Shown here in pieces: positions 25,022 to 64,000 of a stretch of 64,000 nt of DNA. Below the pieces are notes generated by a model, which saw only the letters and a program-made list of their open reading frames with translations, did not search any database and had not been told where the DNA came from. The stretch covers positions 103,811,179 to 103,875,178 of the forward strand of contig NC_057717.1 of NCBI RefSeq assembly GCF_004010195.1, given 5' to 3'. Numbering within the stretch: the first letter of the stretch is position 1; every line of letters starts with the position of its first letter. The translations under genes and the position numbers were made by a program. Source of the DNA: Chiloscyllium plagiosum (taxonomy: Eukaryota).

Positions 25022-25120
25022 CTTGTTGGGCTGGACCGTTCGAAGAAGATTCTCTATCCATTTGTCTCTCTCAGCAGCAGATGTGCAGCCAAAACAGCGA
25101 CTCCCTCTGGAATTAATCAC
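25022..25120 (-). CDS. RASAL3: RASAL3-like exon, C-terminal part of the PH domain
   Basis: TTTCAG|...AAG|GTAGG, 99 bp. [33 protein letters not shown] matches the family motif [16 protein letters not shown]...PNK. Confidence 0.95.
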
Positions 25121-25237
25121 CTGAAACGCCGAGAGTTTGAGTGTCAGACTGGTCAATGGCACATGGGACCTTGCTGGGAATAAATGCCTCCTGAGAAATC
25201 AACCTTCAGTCCCAAGAACAGGCAAGCAACTCGACTC

Positions 25238-25455
25238 CACACACACACATACACACAGACACAGACACATACACACAGACAGACACAAACACACACACAG
25301 ACACACAGACAGACACAAACACACACACAGACAAACATACACAGACACAAACACACACACAGATACACAGACACAGACACAGACACATACACACAGACAG
25401 ACACAAACACACACACAGACAAACATACACAGACACACACAACAGACAAACATAC
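25238..25455. repeat. Degenerate CA/CAGA microsatellite next to gap 25493-25952
   Basis: Directly visible. Confidence 0.95.
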
Positions 25456-26384
25456 CCATGGGAATGTACTCAACCGGGACCTTGGGTGCATGNNNNNNNN
25501 NNNNNNNNNNNNNNNNNNNNNNNNNNNNNNNNNNNNNNNNNNNNNNNNNNNNNNNNNNNNNNNNNNNNNNNNNNNNNNNNNNNNNNNNNNNNNNNNNNNN
25601 NNNNNNNNNNNNNNNNNNNNNNNNNNNNNNNNNNNNNNNNNNNNNNNNNNNNNNNNNNNNNNNNNNNNNNNNNNNNNNNNNNNNNNNNNNNNNNNNNNNN
25701 NNNNNNNNNNNNNNNNNNNNNNNNNNNNNNNNNNNNNNNNNNNNNNNNNNNNNNNNNNNNNNNNNNNNNNNNNNNNNNNNNNNNNNNNNNNNNNNNNNNN
25801 NNNNNNNNNNNNNNNNNNNNNNNNNNNNNNNNNNNNNNNNNNNNNNNNNNNNNNNNNNNNNNNNNNNNNNNNNNNNNNNNNNNNNNNNNNNNNNNNNNNN
25901 NNNNNNNNNNNNNNNNNNNNNNNNNNNNNNNNNNNNNNNNNNNNNNNNNNNNTGCCAGACCTGCTGATTATGTGCTGTTTCTTTGGTGGACCTGTCTAAC
26001 GAGGAACATAAAAACTAGGGAGCAGTAGGCCATTCAGCCCCTCAAGCCTGTTTCGCCATTTAATACAATCATGGCTGGCCTCTATGAGACCTCAACTCCA
26101 CCCTCCTGACCTCTGCCCATAACGCCTCAACTCATTGCTAATTAAAAATCTGTCTATCTCCTCCTTAGGTTTACTCACTGTCCCAGCATCCACCACACTC
26201 CAGGGAAGTGAATTCTGCATAGACCATCCTTTGAGAGGAGTAGTTTCTCCTCATCTCTGTTTTTAAATCTATTGCCCCTTATCCTGAAGTTATGACCTCT
26301 CGTTCTAGATTGTCCCACAAGGGGAAACATCCTCCCTCTGTCGGCTTTGTAAATCCCCGATAGCATCTCACGCACGCAGAAAGC

Positions 26385-26600
26385 GAGGGCTGCAGATGCT
26401 GGAGATCAGAGTCGAGAGGGTGGTGCTGGAAAAGCACAGCAGGTCAGGCAGCATCTGAGGAGCAGGAGAATCGACGTGTCGGGCATGAGCCCTCATCAGG
26501 AAAGGGTTCCTGATTAAGGCCTTATGCCAAAACGTCGATTCTCCTGCTCCTTGGATGCTGCCTGGTCTGCTGTGCTTTTCCAGCATCACACTCTCGATCC
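26385..26600. mobile_element. Palindromic (head-to-head) copy of the short Penelope-derived repeat; similar copies at 22962-23173, 45534-45725, ~29390-29560, ~51953-52085
   Basis: The left arm GTGCTGGAAAAGCACAGCAGGTCAGGCAGCATC...TCGACGTGTCGGGCATGAGCCCTCATCAGGAA is the near reverse complement of the right arm. Confidence 0.8.
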
Positions 26601-27552
26601 TCAGCATCATACGCACCTAAATTACATCTCTCGTTCTCCTAATCTCCAGAGAGTTTCAGCCAAAACTGCTCGATCTCTCTTCATAAGCCAAACTCCAGTT
26701 AGCCCCTGCTTGTTCCTCATATCCATAGCTTCACACATATCTCAGTATGTCACCTATTTCTCCACTTCCCTTTTGGAAGACACAATTGAATCTCTTTCCA
26801 ACTCTGACGCACCACATTCCAAACCAGAACCATTGAATGGAAATGCTCCACATCATCCCCTTTTGATTCCTTGACCAGCCACCTTCAATATTGTCACCTC
26901 ATTACCAACCCTTTTACCACAAGAAGCAGTCCCTCCCTATCAACTCTATCAGTCTGAGCCTCTCTTTTACATCTCCTCTCCCCTCTCCCTACCCCACTCC
27001 AAAAACAATAATATCAGCCTCTCTTGTCTTTTTCATGTCAGTAGGAACAGGCCATTTAGCCCATCGGTAAGATCCTACTGATCTGATTGCAGCCTTTGTA
27101 TTACCTTCTTCACTGTCCCTCATAATCATGGGCTCTGTTGTCCATCAGAACCCAGTTTAGATTTTTCAACATTTTCAATGACTCCAGTTTCCGCTACTCT
27201 CTGGGCAAGAGATTCCCAAACACTGATGGAAGAAATCTCAGCTCACTGAGGAGTGAGGTAACTACAGGCTTCGAAATTTAATCGAAACCAGGAATCCTTG
27301 GCATCTCATGAGGTATCCGCAGCGCAAATGGTTCTAGAAAGTTCCATTCAGGGAGAGGGTGATGCCAATGGAGAAAAAAAGTGGTGTAGTGCCTCGAGTA
27401 GGCCAGGTCGGTGCCTGTGTGAAATGTTGAAAGACTCTCAAAAAAAATGGTAGTCATTCGTTTCGATGTGTGTGCCTTTAAGGAATGTAATCACGCCATA
27501 TTTTGTTAATAAGTGTGTTTATAAACACTTCTTTTCCCTATAAAACTTTTAG

Positions 27553-27766
27553 ATGGACATTTTCCAGAGAATTTCTCCATCCTAATGACACTGAAGGCCA
27601 AGAAAATGTCTCAGTTTTTCCTGCTGTCCATTTACAATGACCAAGGAATACAACAGCTCGGGGTAGAGATTGGGCGATCTCCTGTCTTCCTTTATGAGGA
27701 TCAAACAGGCAAACCAACCCCTGAGGAATATCCCATCTTCAAAAAAATTAACCTGGCTGATGGCAA
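27553..27766 (+). CDS. Clade-B fibrillar collagen (COL5A3/COL5A1/COL11A-type) N-terminal TSPN/laminin-G domain exon
   Basis: TTTTAG|AT...AA|GTAAGT, 214 bp: (D)[70 protein letters not shown](K). 'GHFPENFS' favours COL5A3. Confidence 0.93.
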
Positions 27767-29926
27767 GTAAGTACAGCACACTTTCACCCTTCCTCCTACT
27801 GTTCAGTCACTCGTCAATGTTTACCTCAGATGCATCTTTGCATGAACCACTGGCGGAGTCAGTTAATGTCTCCAGTTTACTATCTGCGTTCCAAAGGTAG
27901 TGTATTCCATTGCGTCCAGTTATGCAGCATGTTTAAGAAGGGAGATGTCCCCAAGGCACATTATAGCAGGGTTATACTCAGAATCCCTACAGTGTGGAAA
28001 CAAGTCCTTCGGCCCAACAAGTCCACACCGACCCTCCGAATAATAACCCATCCAGACCCATTCCCCGACCTTAATTATTCTATATTTACCCCTGATTAAT
28101 GCACCTAACCTACACTTCCCTGGACACAATGGGCAACTTCCCATAGCCAATCCACCCTAACTTGCACATCTTTGGATTGTGGGAGGAAACCCACGCAGAC
28201 ACTGGGAGAACGTGCAAACTCCACACCGACAGTCAACCAAGGTTGGAATCGAACCCGGGTCCCCGGCGCTGTGAGGCAGCAGTGCTAACCACTGAGCCAC
28301 CGTGCCGCCCCAATGACCAACATATGTCAAGAAAGGTCCTGTGACGTGGTGGTAGTGTCCGTATCTCTCGGCCAGAAGGTCCCACGTCAGGACGCGACGA
28401 AGACGTGCCGATAAAAATGTCCGAGCAGATAGCTTCATGTTATAAAGAAAACCAAAACCTGATTGTGAGATAGGAGGAGAGGTGTCCAAGAGGTTCCGGA
28501 ACAGAGGTTGGGTTTACGGGACTCTGTAAACAAAGAGAGCTGGAGAGCTCCTTCCAAGGTACCACAGTTTAAAGCAACAAGCAGCAAGGAGCAAAGGTCC
28601 TAAGGTCATTCTAGTTTCCCCAAAGCGGGTGTGACATCTAATTGTTTGATGCACTTTGTTGGCAGGGTCCTGTTGTCAATATACCTTCTACCAGTGGTGC
28701 TATCAATGGGATTGTGGTGAAGCATCATGACAGAATGTTCTAATTACTTCCACATGGTCTGGACAATATCCAGAATATTTGTAGGAACCAGCTCATCCAG
28801 AATAAGGGCGTTGGATATGAGCCAAGACTCGGTCATGAAAGGAGTGTTCTCTGATGATAGCCGCAGTGGGAATCACAGATTGCCTACAGTGTGTGAGCAG
28901 GCCATTCGACCCATCCAGACCACACCAATCACCTGAAGAGCTTCCCACCCAGTCACTGTAACCCTGCATTTCCCCATGGCTAACCTACCTGGCTTGCAAA
29001 TCCCTGGACACAATGGGCAATTTAGCATGGCCAATCCACCCTAACCTGCAGAAACTTTGGAAGAAAACCAGAGCACCCAGAGGAAACCCACCCAGACACA
29101 GGGAGAATGTGCAAACTGCACACAGACAGTCACCTGAGAGTGGAATTGAATCTGGGTCCCCATTGCTGTAAGGCAGCAGTGCTAACCACTGAGCCACCAT
29201 GCCTGCCCAATGATTAGAATTTTTCAGAATATTTGTCTTAATCGTTGGCTGTCTTGTCCGTCAGAATACTGTTTAGATTATTGAACATGTTCACTGCTCT
29301 CTACTTCACTACTAATGACCCTCTGAAGGAAGAAATCTGACCTCCTTGAAGAGTGGCACACACCAGCCCCCTCCTCACTCTCTCAATGAAAGCAAATGCT
29401 GGAGATTGAGACAAATGCAAAAAAAAACTGCTGGAGGAACTCAGCAGGGTCAGTGAAGAGAGAAAGAGAGACAGAGTTAACATTTTGAGTCCGTTATGAT
29501 CCTTGTTCAGGACTGGAGACCCAGAGAGCTGCCAGACCTGCTGAGTTTCTCCAACACTTTCTGCGCTGGCCCCTCCTCCACCTCGTCCTTTCGATGCACC
29601 CCCTTATGCCGAACACTCTGGCGAACCTTGGGATCACGTGGCCGAGTGCTCCCCCCATCGGGTATGATCGAAACCGTTCTGTGCAAGGCCGCTCCCCACG
29701 CCCGTGAAGTGCGTTGGGATGATGTTGAAGGCGCTATGTAAATGCAGGCTATCGGGGTGTGGGGTGGGCAGACTGAGTGCACAATTGTTGCTGGATGGGA
29801 GTGTTCGGTTGTCGCTTGAGCGAGTGCTGTTTCTTCCGGTGAGTAACCCTCGCGCCCAGCAGTGCGTCAGGCTCAGGTCTGTTCACGCCCTCGTCTCTGA
29901 CGGTACCCGCTGGTTGTGTTTTGCAG

Positions 29927-30089
29927 GTGGCACCGCCTGGCGATCAGCGTTGAAGGGAAGAATGTCACGCTGATCATTGACTGCAGCCAGCAGATATCTG
30001 AGCATCTAGCTCGAAGTGACAATCCAGAGATCAGCACCAATGGAATCACCGTGTTCGGTACCAGGATATTGGATGAGGAAGTGTTTGAG
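29927..30089 (+). CDS. Next exon of the same clade-B collagen TSPN domain
   Basis: TTTTGCAG|G...GAG|GTTAGT, 163 bp, phase-compatible with the previous exon: [19 protein letters not shown]...[19 protein letters not shown]. Confidence 0.93.
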
Positions 30090-32553
30090 GTTAGTGTGAT
30101 GGTTTGTCAGCCAATAGAGTCTGGCATGCCTTTGTTTTATTCTGTGGGCTCCCCTTATGTGTCTTTTGGGTCCCCCCCTCCATCAACCAGTAGCTAATCT
30201 CACCGATTCAGACAGAGTGGAAACAAGCCCTCTTACTCGGGGCATGGAGTTGGCAAACCATGTTGCAGCTGTAGAAAGCCCTTGTTAGGCCGCACTTGGA
30301 GTATTGTCTGCAGTTTTGATTGCCACACTACCAGAAGGACGTTGGAAGCTTTGGAGAGAGTGCAGAGAAGGTTCACCAGGATGTTGCCTGGTCTCGAGGG
30401 CGTGGCTGTGGGGAAAGGTTGGGTGGCACGGTGGCTCAGTGGTTAGCACTGCTACCTCACAATGCCAGGGACCCGAGTTCAATTCCAGCCTCGGGCGACT
30501 GTCTGTGTGGAGTTTGTACATTCTCCCCGTGTCTGTGTGGGTTTCCTCCGGGTGCGCCGATTTCCTCTCACAATCCAAGGATGTGCAGGTCAGGTGAATT
30601 GGCCATGCTAAATTGCCCCATAGTGCTAGGTGCATTAGTCAGGGGTAAAGATCGGGACTGTGCACTCTTCAGCAGGTCAGTGTGGACTTGATGGGCCAAA
30701 GGGTCTGTTTCCATACTGTAGGGAATCTATAAAAGAAAGACCAGGATTGTTTTCACTGGAAAGACAGCGGCTGGGCAGAGACCTGATAGAGGGCTACACA
30801 ATGATGACAGGATGGATAGTTTCCCAGGGTTAAAGTTTCAATTACAAGAGGGTATAGGTTCAAGGTGAGAGCGGGAACATTTAAGGGGAGATGTGCGAGG
30901 GAAGGTTTTCACACGGAGAGTGTTAGGAGCCTGGAACGCACTGTCAGAAGAGGGGGGGGAAATCAGGCATATTGGAGACATTTAAGAGGCATCTGGATGG
31001 TTACATGAATAGGGAGGGAATAGGGGGATATTTACAGAATAAGGACAGTTTTTTAGTTTAGTTGGGGCATAATGATTTGCCCAGGCTTAGAGGGCCGAAG
31101 GGCCTCTTTTGTTCTTATGTTTTTGTTAGGAATTTGTAAAATGCCATTTTGACTGACCGTGACTACAAATTGTGTGTCTTTTGAACAAAATACAATGTAT
31201 GTTCTTTTGAGGTTATTCAACTCCAGACCTTTATTTCTGTCATGGGTTTAGCGCAAAATCGATGTTCAAGTGTAGCAATTCTTGGAGAGGGTCAGGGAGA
31301 GCTCCATTTTCACCAGGCTCCAGGCTGAGTGGCGCAAACCATTGAGCAACTCGAGATCACTCACACCTGGGCAGGAGCCTCACTGTTTACTGGGGGATTC
31401 ATAGAGGCAAGCTTCCTTTCAAGCAGCTGCTAAAATCCAGGCCAGTTACCCAGACGGTTCTGCCGATTAACTATATCGCCACAACGTGCTGTGGCGCCCG
31501 GTCACACTGTCAAATGCTCATTACCCCTGGCCAGTGTAGGGAAGTCAACAAATTATCTCCAACTGAGAGAGTGTTTCAAACCGTGTCCGTCACAAAAGTA
31601 TGTCCCCCACTACCAGGGGGATTCCAGAACGTGGGGACCACTGCTGAAAATTCTCGGTGGGGCGAAGGAGAAATTCCTTCCCTCAGAGGTCAGACTATAG
31701 AATTCCGTCCCATAGTGGGTCTTATCAAATATATCCAACACCAATTTAGACAGACGTTTGATTGACGAGGGTGTCAAAGGTTACTGTTGTTGGGGTGGGG
31801 GGGGGACATCTGATGGGAATGAGGAGTGAAGACCACAGTAAGATCAGCCATGATCTTATCAAGTGGCAGAACAGGCTAGAGGGGCCAAATGGCCTACTTT
31901 TCCTCTGATCCCTAACGGGCGGCACAGTGGTTCAGTGGTTAGCACTGCTGCCTCACAGCACCAAGGTCCTGAGTTCGATTCTAGCCTCGGGCGACTCTCT
32001 GTGTGGAGTTTGTTCATTCTCCCCGTGTCTCCGGGTGCTCCGGTTTCCTCCCACAGTCCAAAGATGTCTAGGTTAGGGTGGATTGGCCATGCTAAGATGC
32101 CCATAGTGTTAGGTGCATTAGTCTGAGGGAAATGGGCCTGGGTGGGTTCCTCTTCGGAGGGTCGGTGTGGACTTGGTGGGCCGAAGGGCCTGTTTCCACA
32201 CTGTAGGGATTCTAAAAATCTCATAAAGGGGAATAAATGTGGCATTACAGAACGGTATAGTAAGGGCTGAAGGAAAATCTCAGGGGAAGAGTTTAACTCC
32301 CAATGCCGGGTGTTACATTCCACCTATATATAGGTAGATGACAACTCTGCTCAGAGAAAGTTTAAGGAAGTCACATTTATTGGATTGCAAAGTGTGGTTC
32401 CCAAATTAGACCGGGTTTCCGTGTTTGAAAGGGAGGCGTCTCCATCTCCAACCCATCCTGAACCTGATTTTGGAGTGTTCATCAATGATATTAAGTCGCT
32501 ATAAGGTCCCTTCACCCTACCTGTCACCCTTCACCCTTCACCCTTCACCCTAC

Positions 32554-32624
32554 CTGTCATTTGGAAACTGTGGTGTTTCTGGTTGATTTTGATTCTTCCT
32601 TCGCAATCTTCGAATGATCAGATT
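32554..32624 (-). CDS. RASAL3: Probable RASAL3-like exon NLIIRRLRRKNQNQPETPQFPND(R)
   Basis: Pyrimidine-rich acceptor CTCTTCACTCCTGTTCCAG| and donor AG|GTAGGG; 71 bp. The basic motif parallels 'GLLKRLKEKK' (RASAL3) and 'GFLSRRLKGSIKR' (SynGAP/DAB2IP) at the same exon position. Confidence 0.6.
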
Positions 32625-33139
32625 CTGGAACAGGAGTGAAGAGCGTTAATTCCGCGAGGGCTGGGCCGAGTACACACCCCTCCGAGAGCAACAGACAGCC
32701 TTCAGTCTTTCACACACTGCGGTGATGAATGGAACAGGGTGGGGCAGCGAGGTAATGCCTACTCAGAGAGCAGGGACCTTCCGGAACCCTCTGAGGGCGA
32801 GAGGGGGAAAAGAGAAAGGAGGAGAGACAGAAGGAGAAAGAGGAAGAAAAAAGGGTGAAAGAGGAGAAAGAAAGAAAGTGAGAGAGCGAGAGAGAAAAAG
32901 TCTGGTAGTGTTTTCTGGCACCTGGGGAGTGCATCAATTTTTTTATGTTGGGATGTGTTGATGTCTGTAAGGTGGCCAAGGGGAGGCAGTGTTCGTCCTC
33001 CTGACTTAAAGAGCCGTTCATCCTTCAGGAGAAGATTATGATTTCTTCTAACATTGGTGAACCCCCTGGATTAATCACCAGCATTTTTATTTTTACCTCC
33101 TTAAATGTGGCCTATTTGTGGGAAGTGGGGAGGGGGGTG

Positions 33140-34961: not shown

Positions 34962-35595
34962 TAGAATCCCTACAATGTAAAAACAGGCCCTTCGGCCCAA
35001 CAAGTCCACGGGCAGCATGGTGCCTCAGTGGTTAGCACTGCTGCCTCACAGCACCAGGGACCCGGGTTCGATTCCAACCTCAGGCGACTCTCTGTGTGGA
35101 GTTTGCACATTCTCATCGTGTCTGCGTGGGTTCCCTCCGGGTGCTCCGGTTTCCTCCCACAGTCCAAAAATGTGCAGGGCAGGATGGATTGGCCATGCTA
35201 AATTGCCCGTAGTGGTAGGTACATTAGTTAGAGGGAAATAGGTCTGGGTGGGGTTACTCTTTGGAGGGTCAGTGTGGACCAGTTGGGCTGAAGGGTCTGT
35301 TTCCACACTGTCGGGAATCAAAAAGCCCTCCAAAGAGTAACCCACCCAGACCCATTCCCCTACATCCACCCCTGACTAATGCACCTAACTGACACATCCC
35401 TGAACACTATAGGGCAATTTAGCACAGCAAACTCACCCTAACCTGCACATCTTTGGATCTTGGGAGGAAACGAAAGCACCCAGAGGAAACTCACACCGAC
35501 ACAGGGAGAACATACAGGCACCACATAGATAGTCCCCGAGGCTGGAATCGAACCCAGGACCAGTGAGGCAGCAGCGCTAACCACTGTGCCACCCC
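34962..35595. mobile_element. Minus-strand HE1 SINE with a plus-strand HE1 SINE (~35009-35320) inserted into it
   Basis: The host SINE tail breaks at CAAGTCCAC and resumes at CCCTCCAAAGAGTAACCC after the inserted copy. Confidence 0.8.
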
Positions 35596-35919
35596 AAATC
35601 ACTGGCTAAAAGAACAGGAGGAGAGATGACCAGCAGATTCTGGATGTTCAGAGGGTTGTTAGGGTCTGAAACCGACTGCCTGAAGGGGCAGGGGAATGGT
35701 TATTGTCAAAAGGGAATTGGATACAGGTTTTGCAAGGGGGAGGGTTTACAGGAGACGGGGCAGAGGACTGGGGATAACGCTAACAGAGAGCTGGTTTAAA
35801 CGCAATCAGTCTCCATAACAACCAGAAACGAGTGATTCAAATCAACACAAAACAAACACAGAAGAAAGAAGGTGTTACTCGCGATGGCACCCAGTGTGGA
35901 ATAGCTCGAAGCAACTTAC

Positions 35920-36097
35920 CTTCACGTTGTTCACTGGGCGCTCGCCAGTGCCTCCTGCCCGTTCCAATTTCCTCACAGAAGCTGGGCTCCTTTTGCCAGG
36001 TACAGAGTCTAAGGGAAGAGACAGACTAGGGTCAAGAGGAACCTGGTTGAGGTTAACTTTGATCAGCTCTTCCTGTGGCATGGACCCCTCCAAAGCC
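35920..36097 (-). CDS. RASAL3: Probable upstream coding exon of the RASAL3-like RasGAP (region N-terminal to the PH core)
   Basis: Acceptor ...CTGCTTCAG| and donor AAG|GTAAGT. The 178-bp exon reads (x)ALEGSMPQEEL...GTGERPVNNVK, whose end resembles RASAL3 '..QVHNVR|GLLKRL' as recalled. Its phase-0 exit fits the next exon. Confidence 0.6.
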
Positions 36098-36624
36098 CTG
36101 AAGCAGCAGGGAGAATCTGCAAATCCCCGTCCACCCCGATTCACCCACAATCCCCGTGCCCACTGACTCGCACGGCATTTTCCCTCCAGTTGTGCCTCAG
36201 TTTAAAAAACATCCACCTCCCCACCCCCCCCCGACCACGTCCAACCGGACAATCTACACAGACATCAACACACCTCCATCTCCAGCACACCCCTGACCTC
36301 CACGGCCCCACTCACAGAGTGCTCAGAGCGGGGGCTTTCAAGGTGGAGAGGGAGGGATGGCAGCTGGGGAACCAGTCAGCCGAGGACGGAGTAGATTGAC
36401 ATGGGACATGCAGAGGATTGCCAGCCTGGAGGAGGGCAGAGGGGTGGTGATGGAGGAGGTGACAGCGATATGGAGGGGGTGTAGGGGATGGAGAAGATGA
36501 CAGCGATAGGGAGGGGGTGTAGGGGCTGGAGGAGGTTATAGAGATAGGGAGGGTGTGTAGGGGATGGAGAGGATGACAGCGATAGGGAGGGATGTAGGGG
36601 CGGGAGGAGGTTACAGAGGTGGGG

Positions 36625-37588
36625 ATGTCCCTCAGTTAGACCCACACTGGGAGCACTGTGCACAGTTCCGGTCTCTATGTCCCTCAGTTAGACCCACACT
36701 GGGAGCACTGTGCACAGTTCCGGTCTCTATGTCCCTCAGTTAGACCCACACTGGGAGCACTGTGCACAGTTCCGGTCTCTATATCCCTCAGTTAGACCCA
36801 CACTGGGAGCACTGTGCACAGTTCCGGTCTCTATGTCCCTCAGTTAGACCCACACTGGGAGCACTGTGCACAGTTCCGGTCTCTATATCCCTCAGTTAGA
36901 CCCACACTGGGAGCACTGTGCACAGTTCCGGTCTCTATATCCCTCAGTTAGACCCACACTGGGAGCACTGTGCACAGTTCCGGTCTCTATATCCCTCAGT
37001 TAGACCCACACTGGGAGCACTGTGCACAGTTCCGGTCTCTATATCCCTCAGTTAGACCCACACTGGGAGCACTGTGCACAGTTCCGGTCTCTATGTCCCT
37101 CAGTTAGACCCACACTGGGAGCACTGTGCACAGTTCCGGTCTCTATATCCCTCAGTTAGACCCACACTGGGAGCACTGTGCACAGTTCCGGTCTCTATAT
37201 CCCTCAGTTAGACCCACACTGGGAGCACTGTGCACAGTTCCGGTCTCTATATCCCTCAGTTAGACCCACACTGGGAGCACTGTGCACAGTTCCGGTCTCT
37301 ATATCCCTCAGTTAGACCCACACTGGGAGCACTGTGCACAGTTCCGGTCTCTATATCCCTCAGTTAGACCCACACTGGGAGCACTGTGCACAGTTCCGGT
37401 CTCTATGTCCCTCAGTTAGACCCACACTGGGAGCACTGTGCACAGTTCCGGTCTCTATATCCCTCAGTTAGACCCACACTGGGAGCACTGTGCACAGTTC
37501 CAGTCTCTATATCCCTCAGTTAGACCCACACTGGGAGCACTGTGCACAGTTCCAGTCTCTATATCCCTCAGTTAGACCCACACTGGGA
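36625..37588. repeat. 52-bp minisatellite, ~18.5 near-identical copies
   Basis: Unit (A/G)TCCCTCAGTTAGACCCACACTGGGAGCACTGTGCACAGTTCC(G/A)GTCTCTAT; period measured 36627->36679. Confidence 0.97.
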
Positions 37589-42949: not shown

Positions 42950-44450
42950 AGTGGGTTTTGAGAAGATTTGTAGCTCACGTTGAGGTTCTGGATGTAGGTT
43001 TGCTCACTGAGCTGGAAGGTTCATTTCCAGACATTTCATCACCATACTAGGTAACATCTTCAGTGGGCCTCAGGCGAAGTAATGCTGATGGTTCCTGCCC
43101 TCTATTTACATGTTTGGGTTTCTTTGGGTTGATGATGTCATTTCCTGTGATGATGCCATTTCCTGTTCTTTTCCTCAGGGGGTGGTAGATGGGGTCCAAG
43201 TCAATATGTTTGTTGGTAGAGGTCCAGTTGGAATGCCATGCTTCTAGGAATTCTCGTGCGTGTCTCTGTTTGGCTTGTCCTAGGATGGATGTGTTGTCCC
43301 AGTCGAAGTGGTGTCCTTCCTCATCCGTATGTAAGGATACTAGCAAGAGAGGGTCATGTCGTTTTGTGGCTAGTTGGTGTCCATGTATCCTGGTGGCCAG
43401 TTTTCTGCCTGTTTTTCCGATGTAATGTTTGTTACAGTTCTTGCACAGTATTTTGTAAGTGACATTCGTTTTGCTTTTGTCTGTGTAGGGTCTTCCAAGT
43501 TCATTAGCTGTTGTTGGTGGGTTTGAGTAGTCTGGCAGTCATTTCTGAGTTGTCTTTGATGTATGGGAGAGTAGTTAGGGTTTCTGGATGTGTTTTGTCT
43601 GCTCGTTTGGGTTTGTTGCTGAGAAATCGGTGGACTGTGTTCACTGGGTACCCATTCTTTTTGAATACACTGTATAGGTGATTTTTCTCTGCTCTGCGTA
43701 GTTCCTCTGTGCTGCAGTGTGTGTTGACTCGTTGAAATAATGTTCTGATGCAGCTCCGTTTGTGGATGTTGGGATGATGGCTTCTTAGTTCAGGATTTGG
43801 TCCGTATATATGGTTTTCCTGTAGACACTGGTTTGAAGTTCCCCATTGGCTGTCCGCTCGACTGTGACATCTAGGAATGGTAGTTTGTTGTTGTTTTCCT
43901 CCTCTTTAGTGAATTTTATGCCAGTAAGGATATTATTGATGGTCTTGAAGGTTTCCTCTAATTTGTTTTGTTTAGTGATGACAACGGTGTCATCCACATA
44001 GTGAACCCAGAGTTTGGGTTGGATGGTTGCCAGAGCTATTTGTTTGAGTCTCTGCATTACTGCCTCTGCTAAGAACCCTGATATCGGAGATCCCATGGAT
44101 GATCCGTTGGTTTGTCTGTAGGTCTTGTTATTGAAGGTGAAGTGGGTGATAAGGCATAGGTCCACTAGCTTGATGATATTGTCCTTGCTGATGAGGTTGG
44201 TGGTGTTTGGTATATGTGTCTTTGGTTCTTCTAATAGTGTAGTCAGTGTTTCCTTGGCTAGGTTGATGTTGATGGATATGAACAGGGCTGTTACATCAAA
44301 GGAGACCATTATTTCATCCTCTTCTATCTTGGTGTCTTTGATTGTCTTCAGGAATTCTTGGGTGGAGTGGATGGAGTGGCGTGAGCCTTCTACTAAGTGT
44401 TTCAGTCTTTGGTGTAGCTCCTTGGCCAGTCTGTAAGTTGGTGTTCCAGT
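42950..44450 (-). mobile_element. Penelope-like element (RT + GIY-YIG remnant, 5' truncated) with terminal repeat
   Basis: MVSFDVTALF...YRQTNGSSMGSPISGFLAE...YVDDT...LPFLDV...VYRK, plus C-terminal HHFDWDNTSIL...REFLEAWHS. Confidence 0.92.
43027..43066 (-). ncRNA. Putative minimal type-I hammerhead ribozyme in the Penelope terminal repeat
   Basis: Minus strand reads CCA-CUGAAGA-U-GUUACC(UAGUAU)GGUGAU-GAAA-UGUC-UGG: both catalytic boxes, stem II, a 3-bp stem I (CCA/UGG) and a GUC triplet. Confidence 0.6.
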
Positions 44451-47400
44451 ACCATGATGAAATGTCAGTTTAGTTAGCTGTGCTCAATCCGACAGACCGA
44501 TTTGAAACCACACCTTCAAAGATAACAGAGTTCTCAGTTGTGCTGTCAAAGGGTGGTGGGTATCAACTAAAGTTTTGATTGTGCCCCTAAAATAGACACG
44601 GGCTGAAACTGTGGTCAGTGGGTGAGGAGGCATATGCGTGTCATGTGTGATTCTGTAAATAAATATTTATAAAGGTGCGTAAAAATTATACCTAGCTCAC
44701 CAACTGGCTCTTGGGAGTTTACAAAGTGCTACACCTTGAGAGCAGACCAGACAATTCTCCTCTCAGTCATTAATAGAGTCTGCACTGCTATTTGGGCCTG
44801 AGATTGTGTAAGGTAGCTATCCTCCATTTAGGGCATTTTACTGGAGAAATAAAGTCATAGAGTCATGGAAACGTACCCATCGGTCCAACCAGTCCGTGCC
44901 GATCATAATCCCAAAGTAAACTAGTTCCCACCTGCCTGCTCCTGGCTCATATCCCTCCAAACCTTTCCTGTTCATGGACTTATCCAAATGGCTTTTAAAC
45001 GTTGTAACTGTCCCCATATCCACCACTTCCTCAGGAAGGTCATTCCACACACAAACTGCTCTCTGTGTAAAATAAATTGCCCCTCACGCCATACGGCACT
45101 GAAGAGACCCATTAAGTCAGCACCAACCTATCTCCACTCATCCCACTTCCCAGTACTTGGCTTTAATTTGCAAACCTTACCACAGTTTATACAGAATCCA
45201 GTTAGAGTTATAAGTTATAATTACGGCACAGAAGGAGGCCATGCAGCCCTTCAAGTCGATGAAAGCCCTTTGTTGAGCAATCCAGCTTAGTCTAGTCCCA
45301 TGCTCTACCCCTGCACGTCTATTTCCTTTTAGAAAGATTGATCGCCTCTGATCCCACCATCCTTGTAGACATGGTCATTGTTACTCATGATATTAACAAG
45401 ATGTCTTCATATCACACACACCCACCCCATATTACTCACCATGAAATCCGGGTTTCCTGGTCAGCACATGGGGACACCTTTCCTTTGTCTACCTCACGTA
45501 AGCCTGGCACACTCTTATGCACAGATCAACTAGGCAGAAGGGAGGACTGCAGATGCTGGAGATTAGACTCAAGATTAGAGTGTTGCTGGAAAAGCACAGC
45601 AGGTCAGGCAGCATCCGAGGAGCAGGGAATTCAACGTTTCAAGCAAGCCTGAAACATCAATTTTCCTGCTCCTCGGATGCTGCCTGACCTGCTGTGCTTT
45701 TCCAGCACCACTCTAATCTACACTCTAGTGCACCTCAGTGTAACAGAGTCACAGAGCTGTACAGCATGGAAACAGAGCCTTCAGTGCCAACCAAATATCT
45801 GAAATTAATCTTGTCCCACTTGTCAGCAGCTGGCTCATATCCCTCTAAACCCTTCCTGTACCCATCCAATTTTATGTCAAACTCCTTTGCTCTGAGCAGG
45901 ACAACTGCAGCTTCTCCAGCCAGACCATGTGGACCTCCCATCCCTGAAGACATTCGGGGAAAAGACGCCTGCTTCCTGTTTGCAGTGAAATGGTCTTGGT
46001 TTGCTAGGAGGCCCTTTATAATTAAGGGCAGCGCGGTGCCTCAGTAGTTAGCCCTGTTGCCTCACAGCGCCAGGGACACGAGTTCGATTCCGGCCTCGGG
46101 CGACTGGCTGTGTGGAGTTTGCACATTCTCCCTGTGTCTGTGTGGATTTCCTCCGGGTGCTCCAGTTTCCTCCCACAATCCAAAGATGTGCAGGTCAGGT
46201 GAATTGGCCATGCTAAATTGCCCATAGTGTTAGGTGGATTAGTCAGAGGGAAATGGGTCTGGGTGGGTTACATATTGGAGGATCGGTGTGGACCTGTTGG
46301 GCCGAAGGGCCTGTTTCCACACTGTATGGAATCTAATCTAATAATGGAGGGGTCTCACCACCACCTCGGCTCATAGCCTCATTCCTGATGAAGGGCTTTT
46401 GCCCGAAATGTTGATTCTAAGATTTACATGGATATTGCCAGGGTTGGAGGATCTGAGCTACAGGGAGAGTCTGAACAGCTGGGGCTGTTTTCCCTGGAGC
46501 TTCGGAGGCTGAGGGGTGACCTTTTTTTTAGATTACATTACAGTGTGGAAACAGGCCCATTGGCCCAACAAGTCCACACCGACCCGCCGAAGCGCAACCC
46601 ACCCATACCCCTACATTTACCCCTTACCTAACACCGCGGGCAATTTAGCATGGCCAATTCACCTGACCTGCACATCTTTGGACTGTGGGAGGAAACCAGA
46701 GCACCCGGAGAAAACCCACGNNNNNNNNNNNNNNNNNNNNNNNNNNNNNNNNNNNNNNNNNNNNNNNNNNNNNNNNNNNNNNNNNNNNNGATGGGTATAT
46801 GAATAGGAAGGGTTTGGAGGGATATGGGCCGTGTGCTGGCAGGTGGCATTAGATTGGGTTGGGATATCTGGTCGGCATGGACGGGTTGGACCGAAGGGTC
46901 TGTTTCCGTGCTGTACATCTCTCTGACTCTCTGACTCTCTGACTCTATGCTGCCTGACCTGCTGTGCTTTTCCAGCACCACCCTCTCAACTCTGACCTGC
47001 TGTGCTTTTCCAGCACCACCCTCTCAACTCTGAACTCCAGCATCTGCAGCCCTCACGTTCCCCTCCGATGGAAACACTGCCACCAGTTTGCAGGCTGAAG
47101 CGGCACTTCCTCCAGGTACACGAGCAAGTGCAACAACCTTTTACCTCAGAAAGACGCCCTCCCCCTCAGTCTCACACGTTTCTTTCTCAGACGTTGCTGT
47201 GTGCACTAATAACACACAACATGCCTGCAGAGCCAATCTCACAGCAGACGAGACAAGCAACTTGAGTAACACATTACTCATGAGTGATGTTACAACAGCT
47301 TAGCTAATGCGAGAGAGGACAACCAGTCAGATCCCAAATTCCCGCAGCAAGAGGTTTTGGCAAAAAGATAAACAGGTGTTAAATTTATCACGCTCATCAG

Positions 47401-55773: not shown

Positions 55774-55834
55774 CTTGCTGTGCCCCACAGACAAGGCATC
55801 GCTTCAAGCCCATCTTGCTCTGCCGTTGTTGCAT
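55774..55834 (-). CDS. Candidate first coding exon (MQQRQSKMGLKRCLVCGAQQ-G), possibly of the RASAL3-like gene
   Basis: Strong donor AAG|GTGAGT in a non-repetitive, relatively CpG-rich segment, with two in-frame ATGs (55834, 55813). Lies just downstream of a motif cluster. No homology support. Confidence 0.35.
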
Positions 55835-63795: not shown

Positions 63796-64000
63796 TCACT
63801 CTCTGTTCCGAGCCTCACTCTCTGTTCCTAGCCTCACTCTCTGTTCTGAGCCTCACTGTCTGTTCCTAGCCTCACTCTCTGTTCCGAGCCTCACTCTCTA
63901 TTCCGAGCCTCACTGTCTGTTCCTAGCCTCACTCTCTGTTCCTAGCCTCACTCTCTGTTCCGAGCCTCACTGTCTGTTCGTAGCCTCACTCTCTGTTCCT
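63796..64000. repeat. 19-bp minisatellite (AGCCTCACTCTCTGTTCC[T/G]), >10 copies, runs off the window end
   Basis: Period measured 63811->63830. Confidence 0.95.

Follow-up and report, generated by a model that had tools for sequence, protein, structure and literature searches.

Two COL5A3 exons antisense within RASAL3 of the shark Chiloscyllium plagiosum: a probable local misassembly

We use a combination of similarity searches, orthologue mapping and phylogenetic trees to study a locus of Chiloscyllium plagiosum at which collagen exons lie inside a gene read from the opposite strand. Throughout, the window is the whole stretch of DNA analysed, 64,000 nt long. When 12 orthologues are mapped to the window, the host gene appears on the minus strand as a series of 14 coding exons that runs in order from 55834 down to 4216, and the collagen exons therefore fall within the span of one gene. 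These 14 are the first coding exon of the short isoform (55774-55834; 18 of 20 residues identical to isoform X2 of C. punctatum), an 89-nt exon at 35920-36008 (97% identical to C. punctatum residues 21-50), a 71-nt exon at 32554-32624 (phase 0 to 2; C. punctatum residues 50-73), a 99-nt exon of the PH region at 25022-25120 (phase 0 to 0; C. punctatum residues 121-155) and ten more between 4216 and 22516, all open, which cover the C2 and GAP domains and the coiled coil; the final exon falls outside the window. The exon at 21968-22516 matches elasmobranch RasGAPs at 78-99% identity, and in a tree of 28 rows, none of them SYNGAP1, the host gene groups with amphibian RASAL3 (100/100) and separates from DAB2IP and RASAL2. 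An earlier note on this DNA had assigned the exons on either side of the collagen piece, 25022-25120 and 32554-32624, to one minus-strand RasGAP, and they are indeed 97% and 96% identical to C. punctatum RASAL3; the orthologue mapping confirms that the 32.5- and 35.9-kb exons belong to this gene.

Some features of the host gene are recorded here in their own right. RefSeq labels the elasmobranch RASAL3 orthologues nGAP-like, SynGAP-like or DAB2IP-like, despite their grouping with amphibian RASAL3. The long isoform XP_072420455.1 begins with 222 residues that nothing in the window matches, and they would lie beyond position 64000, in a small gap at 46721-46789, or be likewise absent from the assembly. 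A 7-nt tandem repeat (6.6 copies, 32508-32551) starts right at the donor of the 71-nt exon. On the minus strand at 43050-44483, open frames look like a reverse transcriptase with a GIY-YIG-like endonuclease after it, a pair that we take to resemble a Penelope-like element.

On the plus strand lie two exons of a TSPN/laminin-G domain, one of 214 nt at 27553-27766 (acceptor ...TTTTAG, donor GTAAGT) and one of 163 nt at 29927-30089 (acceptor ...TTGCAG, donor GTTAGT), which we take to correspond in size and numbering to exons 3 and 4 of human COL5A1. The earlier note had described them as intact, and at these positions both are stop-free, with compatible phases and canonical splice sites; joined, they give 125 codons in frame, and all 125 residues are identical to residues 85-209 of C. 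punctatum GCC29266.1. With the first exon as query, 422 of 429 candidate proteins match at E<=0.001 (best E 4e-38 at 100% identity), which excludes a chance resemblance; the homology is to the N-terminal TSPN/laminin-G domain, and the best match carries PF02210. In a 32-row tree the domain groups with teleost col5a3a, apart from col5a1 and col11a1 (100/99), and in a 77-row tree the shark sequence stays in the col5a3a clade (99), which includes a felid cluster named collagen alpha-3(V); neither tree had a row named COL11A2. Judged by their sequence, then, the two exons are those of COL5A3, a clade B fibrillar collagen, and the collagen and RasGAP trees together bear out the earlier identification of the two genes. 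Clade B is described as four genes in an excerpt of PMC8887668. The 77-row tree also contains a separate TSPN clade of 17 mostly short rows from shark, teleost, lizard and bird, named collagen XI-like, V-like or uncharacterized and including C. punctatum XP_072406392.1 (530 aa); this clade may be COL11A2 or a further paralogue.

The two exons stand by themselves in the 64-kb window, in keeping with the earlier note: tblastn with the collected proteins (P0001-P0386) matches these two places and no other collagen exon, and exons for the signal peptide, variable region, Gly-X-Y repeat and C-propeptide are all absent from the window. A six-frame scan of the window for Gly-X-Y returns two short runs of five triplets, neither in nor near the collagen exons.

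We also considered, and rejected, the MHC pair COL11A2 and SYNGAP1 as the identities of the two genes. This assignment runs against the trees, in which neither gene is a named row, and against chromosome sizes: the RASAL3 orthologue of white shark lies on a 37.2-Mb contig, whereas the white shark MHC chromosome reaches or exceeds 85 Mb according to part of the supplement to PMC10751288. As a separate observation, the C. plagiosum RASAL3 models lie on a 107.6-Mb contig and those of C. punctatum on one of 64.5 Mb, with orthologue contigs of 19-45 Mb in ten other elasmobranchs and 86-376 Mb in three more; a fusion may lie behind this contrast in size, or a misjoin at the level of the chromosome.

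Close inspection of RASAL3 reveals a detail that the earlier reader overlooked: the exon for residues 74-121 is absent. In relatives, the interval that here spans 25121-32553 (minus strand, 7433 nt) consists of two introns and a 145-nt exon encoding residues 74-121 of XP_072420456.1. This exon (phase 2 to 0) has its place between 32554 and 25120, in the very interval that holds the assembly gap and the collagen exons. A sensitive tblastn with five orthologue segments for these residues gives chance matches only in the window (best E 0.12), and the run of RASAL3 exons from 55.8 kb to the GAP domain is thus incomplete. The segment is present in 32 of the 34 records taken as RASAL3 orthologues (14 of them in the RASAL3 tree, several being isoforms, and 21 named species besides the window's own); the two records that lack it are the model from the window's locus and an older draft model of S. 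torazame.

Does RASAL3 work without this exon? Splicing 32554 directly to 25120 gives an immediate stop. Dropping the 71-nt and 145-nt exons together, however, removes 216 nt and preserves the frame, with 35920 spliced to 25120, which limits the argument from the frame. The rest of the gene is intact: from the 99-nt exon on, 802 of 823 residues agree with C. punctatum (21 differences), and against H. ocellatum there are 24 differences; no stop interrupts the 11 exons from 25120 downwards, and the RASAL3 branch (0.0083) is as short as those of its relatives (0.0081 and 0.010). By these comparisons RASAL3 looks alive.

These observations bear on the idea of a real exchange, in which a recent repeat-mediated ectopic recombination would have swapped the RASAL3 segment with the 145-nt PH-region exon for exons 3-4 of COL5A3, both genes belonging to one ancient paralogous chromosome; RASAL3 would then be made by the in-frame double exon skip, with the loss of part of the PH region, or the allele would be damaged. 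Like a misassembly, such an exchange needs a single event to account for both the insert and the lost exon, and the required splice is both in frame and found in one S. torazame draft model. Yet the 71-nt exon that would be skipped is intact with canonical sites, and the segment that would be lost is conserved, being 75-100% identical among the elasmobranch records that have it and retained as far as amphibians. Furthermore, the newer S. torazame models keep both exons, and for this reason the skipped form looks like a draft artefact. We consider a real exchange very unlikely.

Now we consider how the interval itself is laid out. To the left of the collagen piece come, in order, a CA-rich repeat, an assembly gap of 460 N at 25493-25952, which forms the left border of the collagen-bearing contig, and LINE and SINE pieces up to about 26.6 kb. 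To the right, about 160 nt separate the 29927-30089 exon from a LINE 3' fragment on the plus strand (30246-31109, presumably CR1-like) that matches other copies in the window at 62-79% and contains a SINE at 30420-30734. There follow a stretch without matches elsewhere in the window and, at 31789-32229 on the plus strand, a LINE tail and then a SINE (31915-32229), after which the RASAL3 exon is next. The two repeat blocks are candidates for a right-hand join. The earlier note had proposed joins at 30250-31110 and 31916-32215, and repeats do lie there, but the SINE at 30420-30734 is weakened as a join and by itself is unlikely to be one, because the LINE runs roughly in register, or collinear, on both its sides. 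A gap or a repeat is found at both borders of the collagen piece; repeats cover 32% of the window by self-comparison, however, and such borders therefore carry little weight.

The earlier note was also right that no gap separates the second collagen exon from the 32.5-kb exon, since the sole gap in the flanking interval is that at 25493-25952, left of the collagen. This continuity, from 30089 to 32554, favours a real and recent segmental insertion, in which repair or recombination at shared LINE or SINE copies, to name one route, would have left a copy of 2.5-6 kb of COL5A3 in an intron of RASAL3, be it in the species or in this individual. The antisense collagen exons would then be silent passengers, and the RASAL3 exon would be intact and hidden in the 460-N gap. 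This gap is a possible hiding place: the 145-nt exon fits into it, and the intron downstream of the exon would then measure about 400-690 nt, close to the shortest RASAL3 introns (642 and 706 nt). The length of the interval is no guide here, as the 11 ordinary RASAL3 introns range from 642 to 4394 nt and 7433 nt consequently fits replacement and insertion alike. What tells against an insertion is that two unrelated accidents would have had to meet in this interval, the arrival of foreign DNA and the loss of a unique coding exon to a small gap, that no second copy of the collagen exons occurs in the sister species among the proteins returned, and that the source is a gap-filled short-read draft. 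We regard a real insertion as unlikely.

The age of the collagen piece constrains these readings to some extent. The exons show no decay, with every residue the same as in C. punctatum and all four splice sites canonical. For a dead copy dating back to the species split, we expect about 3.5 amino-acid changes over 293 replacement sites, assuming a rough divergence of 2.4% taken from word shares of sequencing runs, and observe none (P 0.03, itself rough). As a rough guide, this result would exclude only old dead copies (divergence above about 1%) and not young ones; a young insertion would show no decay either. As for the sequencing runs themselves, 20 of the 24 among the matches listed hold 25953-32790 wholly or partly, 6 of them at at least half of the words, and no RNA run is among the matches listed for this segment; such word shares read the same for a misjoin and for a real junction.

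Comparison with other genomes speaks to a further possibility, namely that the two genes are interleaved: a very long COL5A3 would have exons 3-4 in a RASAL3 intron, and the two halves of RASAL3 would sit in collagen introns 2 and 4. Perfect collagen exons are what one would expect of such a pair. In the independent draft of the sister species C. punctatum, however, protein records put a complete RASAL3 model (938 residues) on a scaffold of 137.5 kb and, on another of 2.96 Mb, the collagen model, which has exons before and after these two, so that by these gene-model records, as distinct from DNA, the interleaved arrangement is not kept in the close relative. We take WIZ, AKAP8, BRD4 and NOTCH3 to be the neighbours of RASAL3 in human. 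In lungfish, COL5A3 and this WIZ-AKAP8-BRD4-NOTCH3 block share a chromosome, by an extract of PMC10751288, which lends some support to a real insertion, with the RASAL3 neighbourhood taken from human; they lie about 320 gene rows and 335 Mb apart, which goes against interleaving. Clade B collagen genes of cartilaginous fish are long, to judge from part of the supplement of the same paper (COL11A2 measures 234-340 kb in three cartilaginous fishes), and the neighbouring exons could accordingly be outside the window, but interleaving leaves the missing RASAL3 exon unexplained. We find it hardly credible.

The locus has already been annotated. The C. plagiosum models of RefSeq match it letter for letter, intronic read-ins included, and it follows that the collagen fragment is already covered: XP_043551064.1, named 'collagen alpha-1(V)-like', is a gene model on it, while the matching RASAL3 model is termed 'partial' and starts just before the gap. 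The third piece of XP_043551064.1 (32334-32504, plus strand) might be offered as proof of a real junction; we reject it as such, given a weak donor (GTTTGT), a weak acceptor and no homologue, and it is probably a prediction artefact. We also looked for the main COL5A3 model of C. plagiosum. A 111-residue query from the following exons returned 2 of 481 candidates, neither from this species, and the model is absent among the best 150 matches of a HMMER search of 1.84 billion representatives; full-length shark collagens are missing from both searches, so this failure is no evidence. The literature searched (COL5A3 or RASAL3 in sharks, bamboo shark misassembly, MHC paralogs, interleaved genes) yielded no paper on this locus.

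As to the presumed source, the available part of PMC7677710 describes the published C. plagiosum draft as short-read and gap-filled, built with Platanus, KGF and GapCloser, with a contig N50 of 35,451-37,247. An excerpt of bioRxiv 2025.02.26.637739 counts 101,925 unplaced scaffolds in it, and a HiFi assembly of the species comes to 4.74-5.04 Gb against 3.56 Gb for the draft, at least 33% larger, in the portion of PMC11406177 consulted.

Taken together, comparative evidence leads us to favour, with a probability of roughly 80%, a local misassembly in which a COL5A3 contig was scaffolded into a gap of RASAL3. Scaffolding would have set a piece of the true COL5A3, a contig a few kb long with the two exons and flanking introns, into a RASAL3 gap; the contig's left end would have remained an open gap, its right end would have been closed through a LINE or SINE somewhere in 30.1-32.5 kb, and the true RASAL3 sequence with the 145-nt exon would have been displaced or left in the gap. 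Here we infer both the scaffolding error itself and the position of the right-hand join. In the animal, both RASAL3 and COL5A3 are probably ordinary and whole.

We prefer a misassembly because it is the single simplest event that yields a flawless foreign piece, a host exon missing at the same spot and a one-sided gap: an exon held by nearly all orthologue records is missing exactly in the interval that bears the collagen, while RASAL3 looks alive and the direct 32554-to-25120 join gives a stop. It is favoured too because the collagen exons show no decay, because the RASAL3 and collagen models of C. punctatum lie on separate scaffolds, because the piece has a gap to its left and repeats to its right, because the RASAL3 model of RefSeq is 'partial' and starts just before this gap, and because the draft was gap-filled by Platanus, KGF and GapCloser and is so much smaller than the HiFi assembly. 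Against it count the unbroken sequence from 30089 to 32554, with no join pinpointed and the LINE roughly collinear across the SINE at 30420-30734, and the fit of the 145-nt exon into the 460-N gap, which would explain its absence without displacement. The preserved frame of the double skip, an interval size that suits insertion too and a decay argument limited to old copies weigh in the same direction. Of the three readings that the earlier note had offered, the chimeric join is thus the favoured one and the interleaved pair is contradicted by the sister species. A real partial duplication could still apply, but the absence of the RASAL3 exon would then call for an explanation of its own.

If the locus is misassembled, its importance is that of a curation note: XP_043551064.1 would be spurious, the 'partial' RASAL3 would be explained, and the COL5A3 of this draft should be short of two exons. 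If it is real, we would be looking at an exchange between two single-copy genes caught in the act in a slowly evolving genome, and possibly at a RASAL3 variant of natural origin in a shark that serves immunology research.

It is instructive to set the locus beside known systems. GCC29266.1, the 419-aa 5' model of C. punctatum COL5A3, shares the 125 residues and the clade with col5a3a, but there the exons are flanked by those for the signal peptide, variable region and minor helix, whereas in the window the two stand alone. RASAL3 of C. punctatum (XP_072420456.1 and GCC21760.1, named 'nGAP-like') has the same exon order as the window but also the 48-residue segment that the window is without. 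In the RefSeq annotation the collagen fragment has the status of a gene, one that starts internally and ends in an exon lacking homology, and the missing RASAL3 exon goes unmentioned. Short-read drafts are subject to contig misplacement and to gap closing mediated by repeats. The locus has the same features as such a misplaced contig: a gap borders the foreign piece, its closed end lies among repeats, the host lacks an exon and the donor piece is free of decay.
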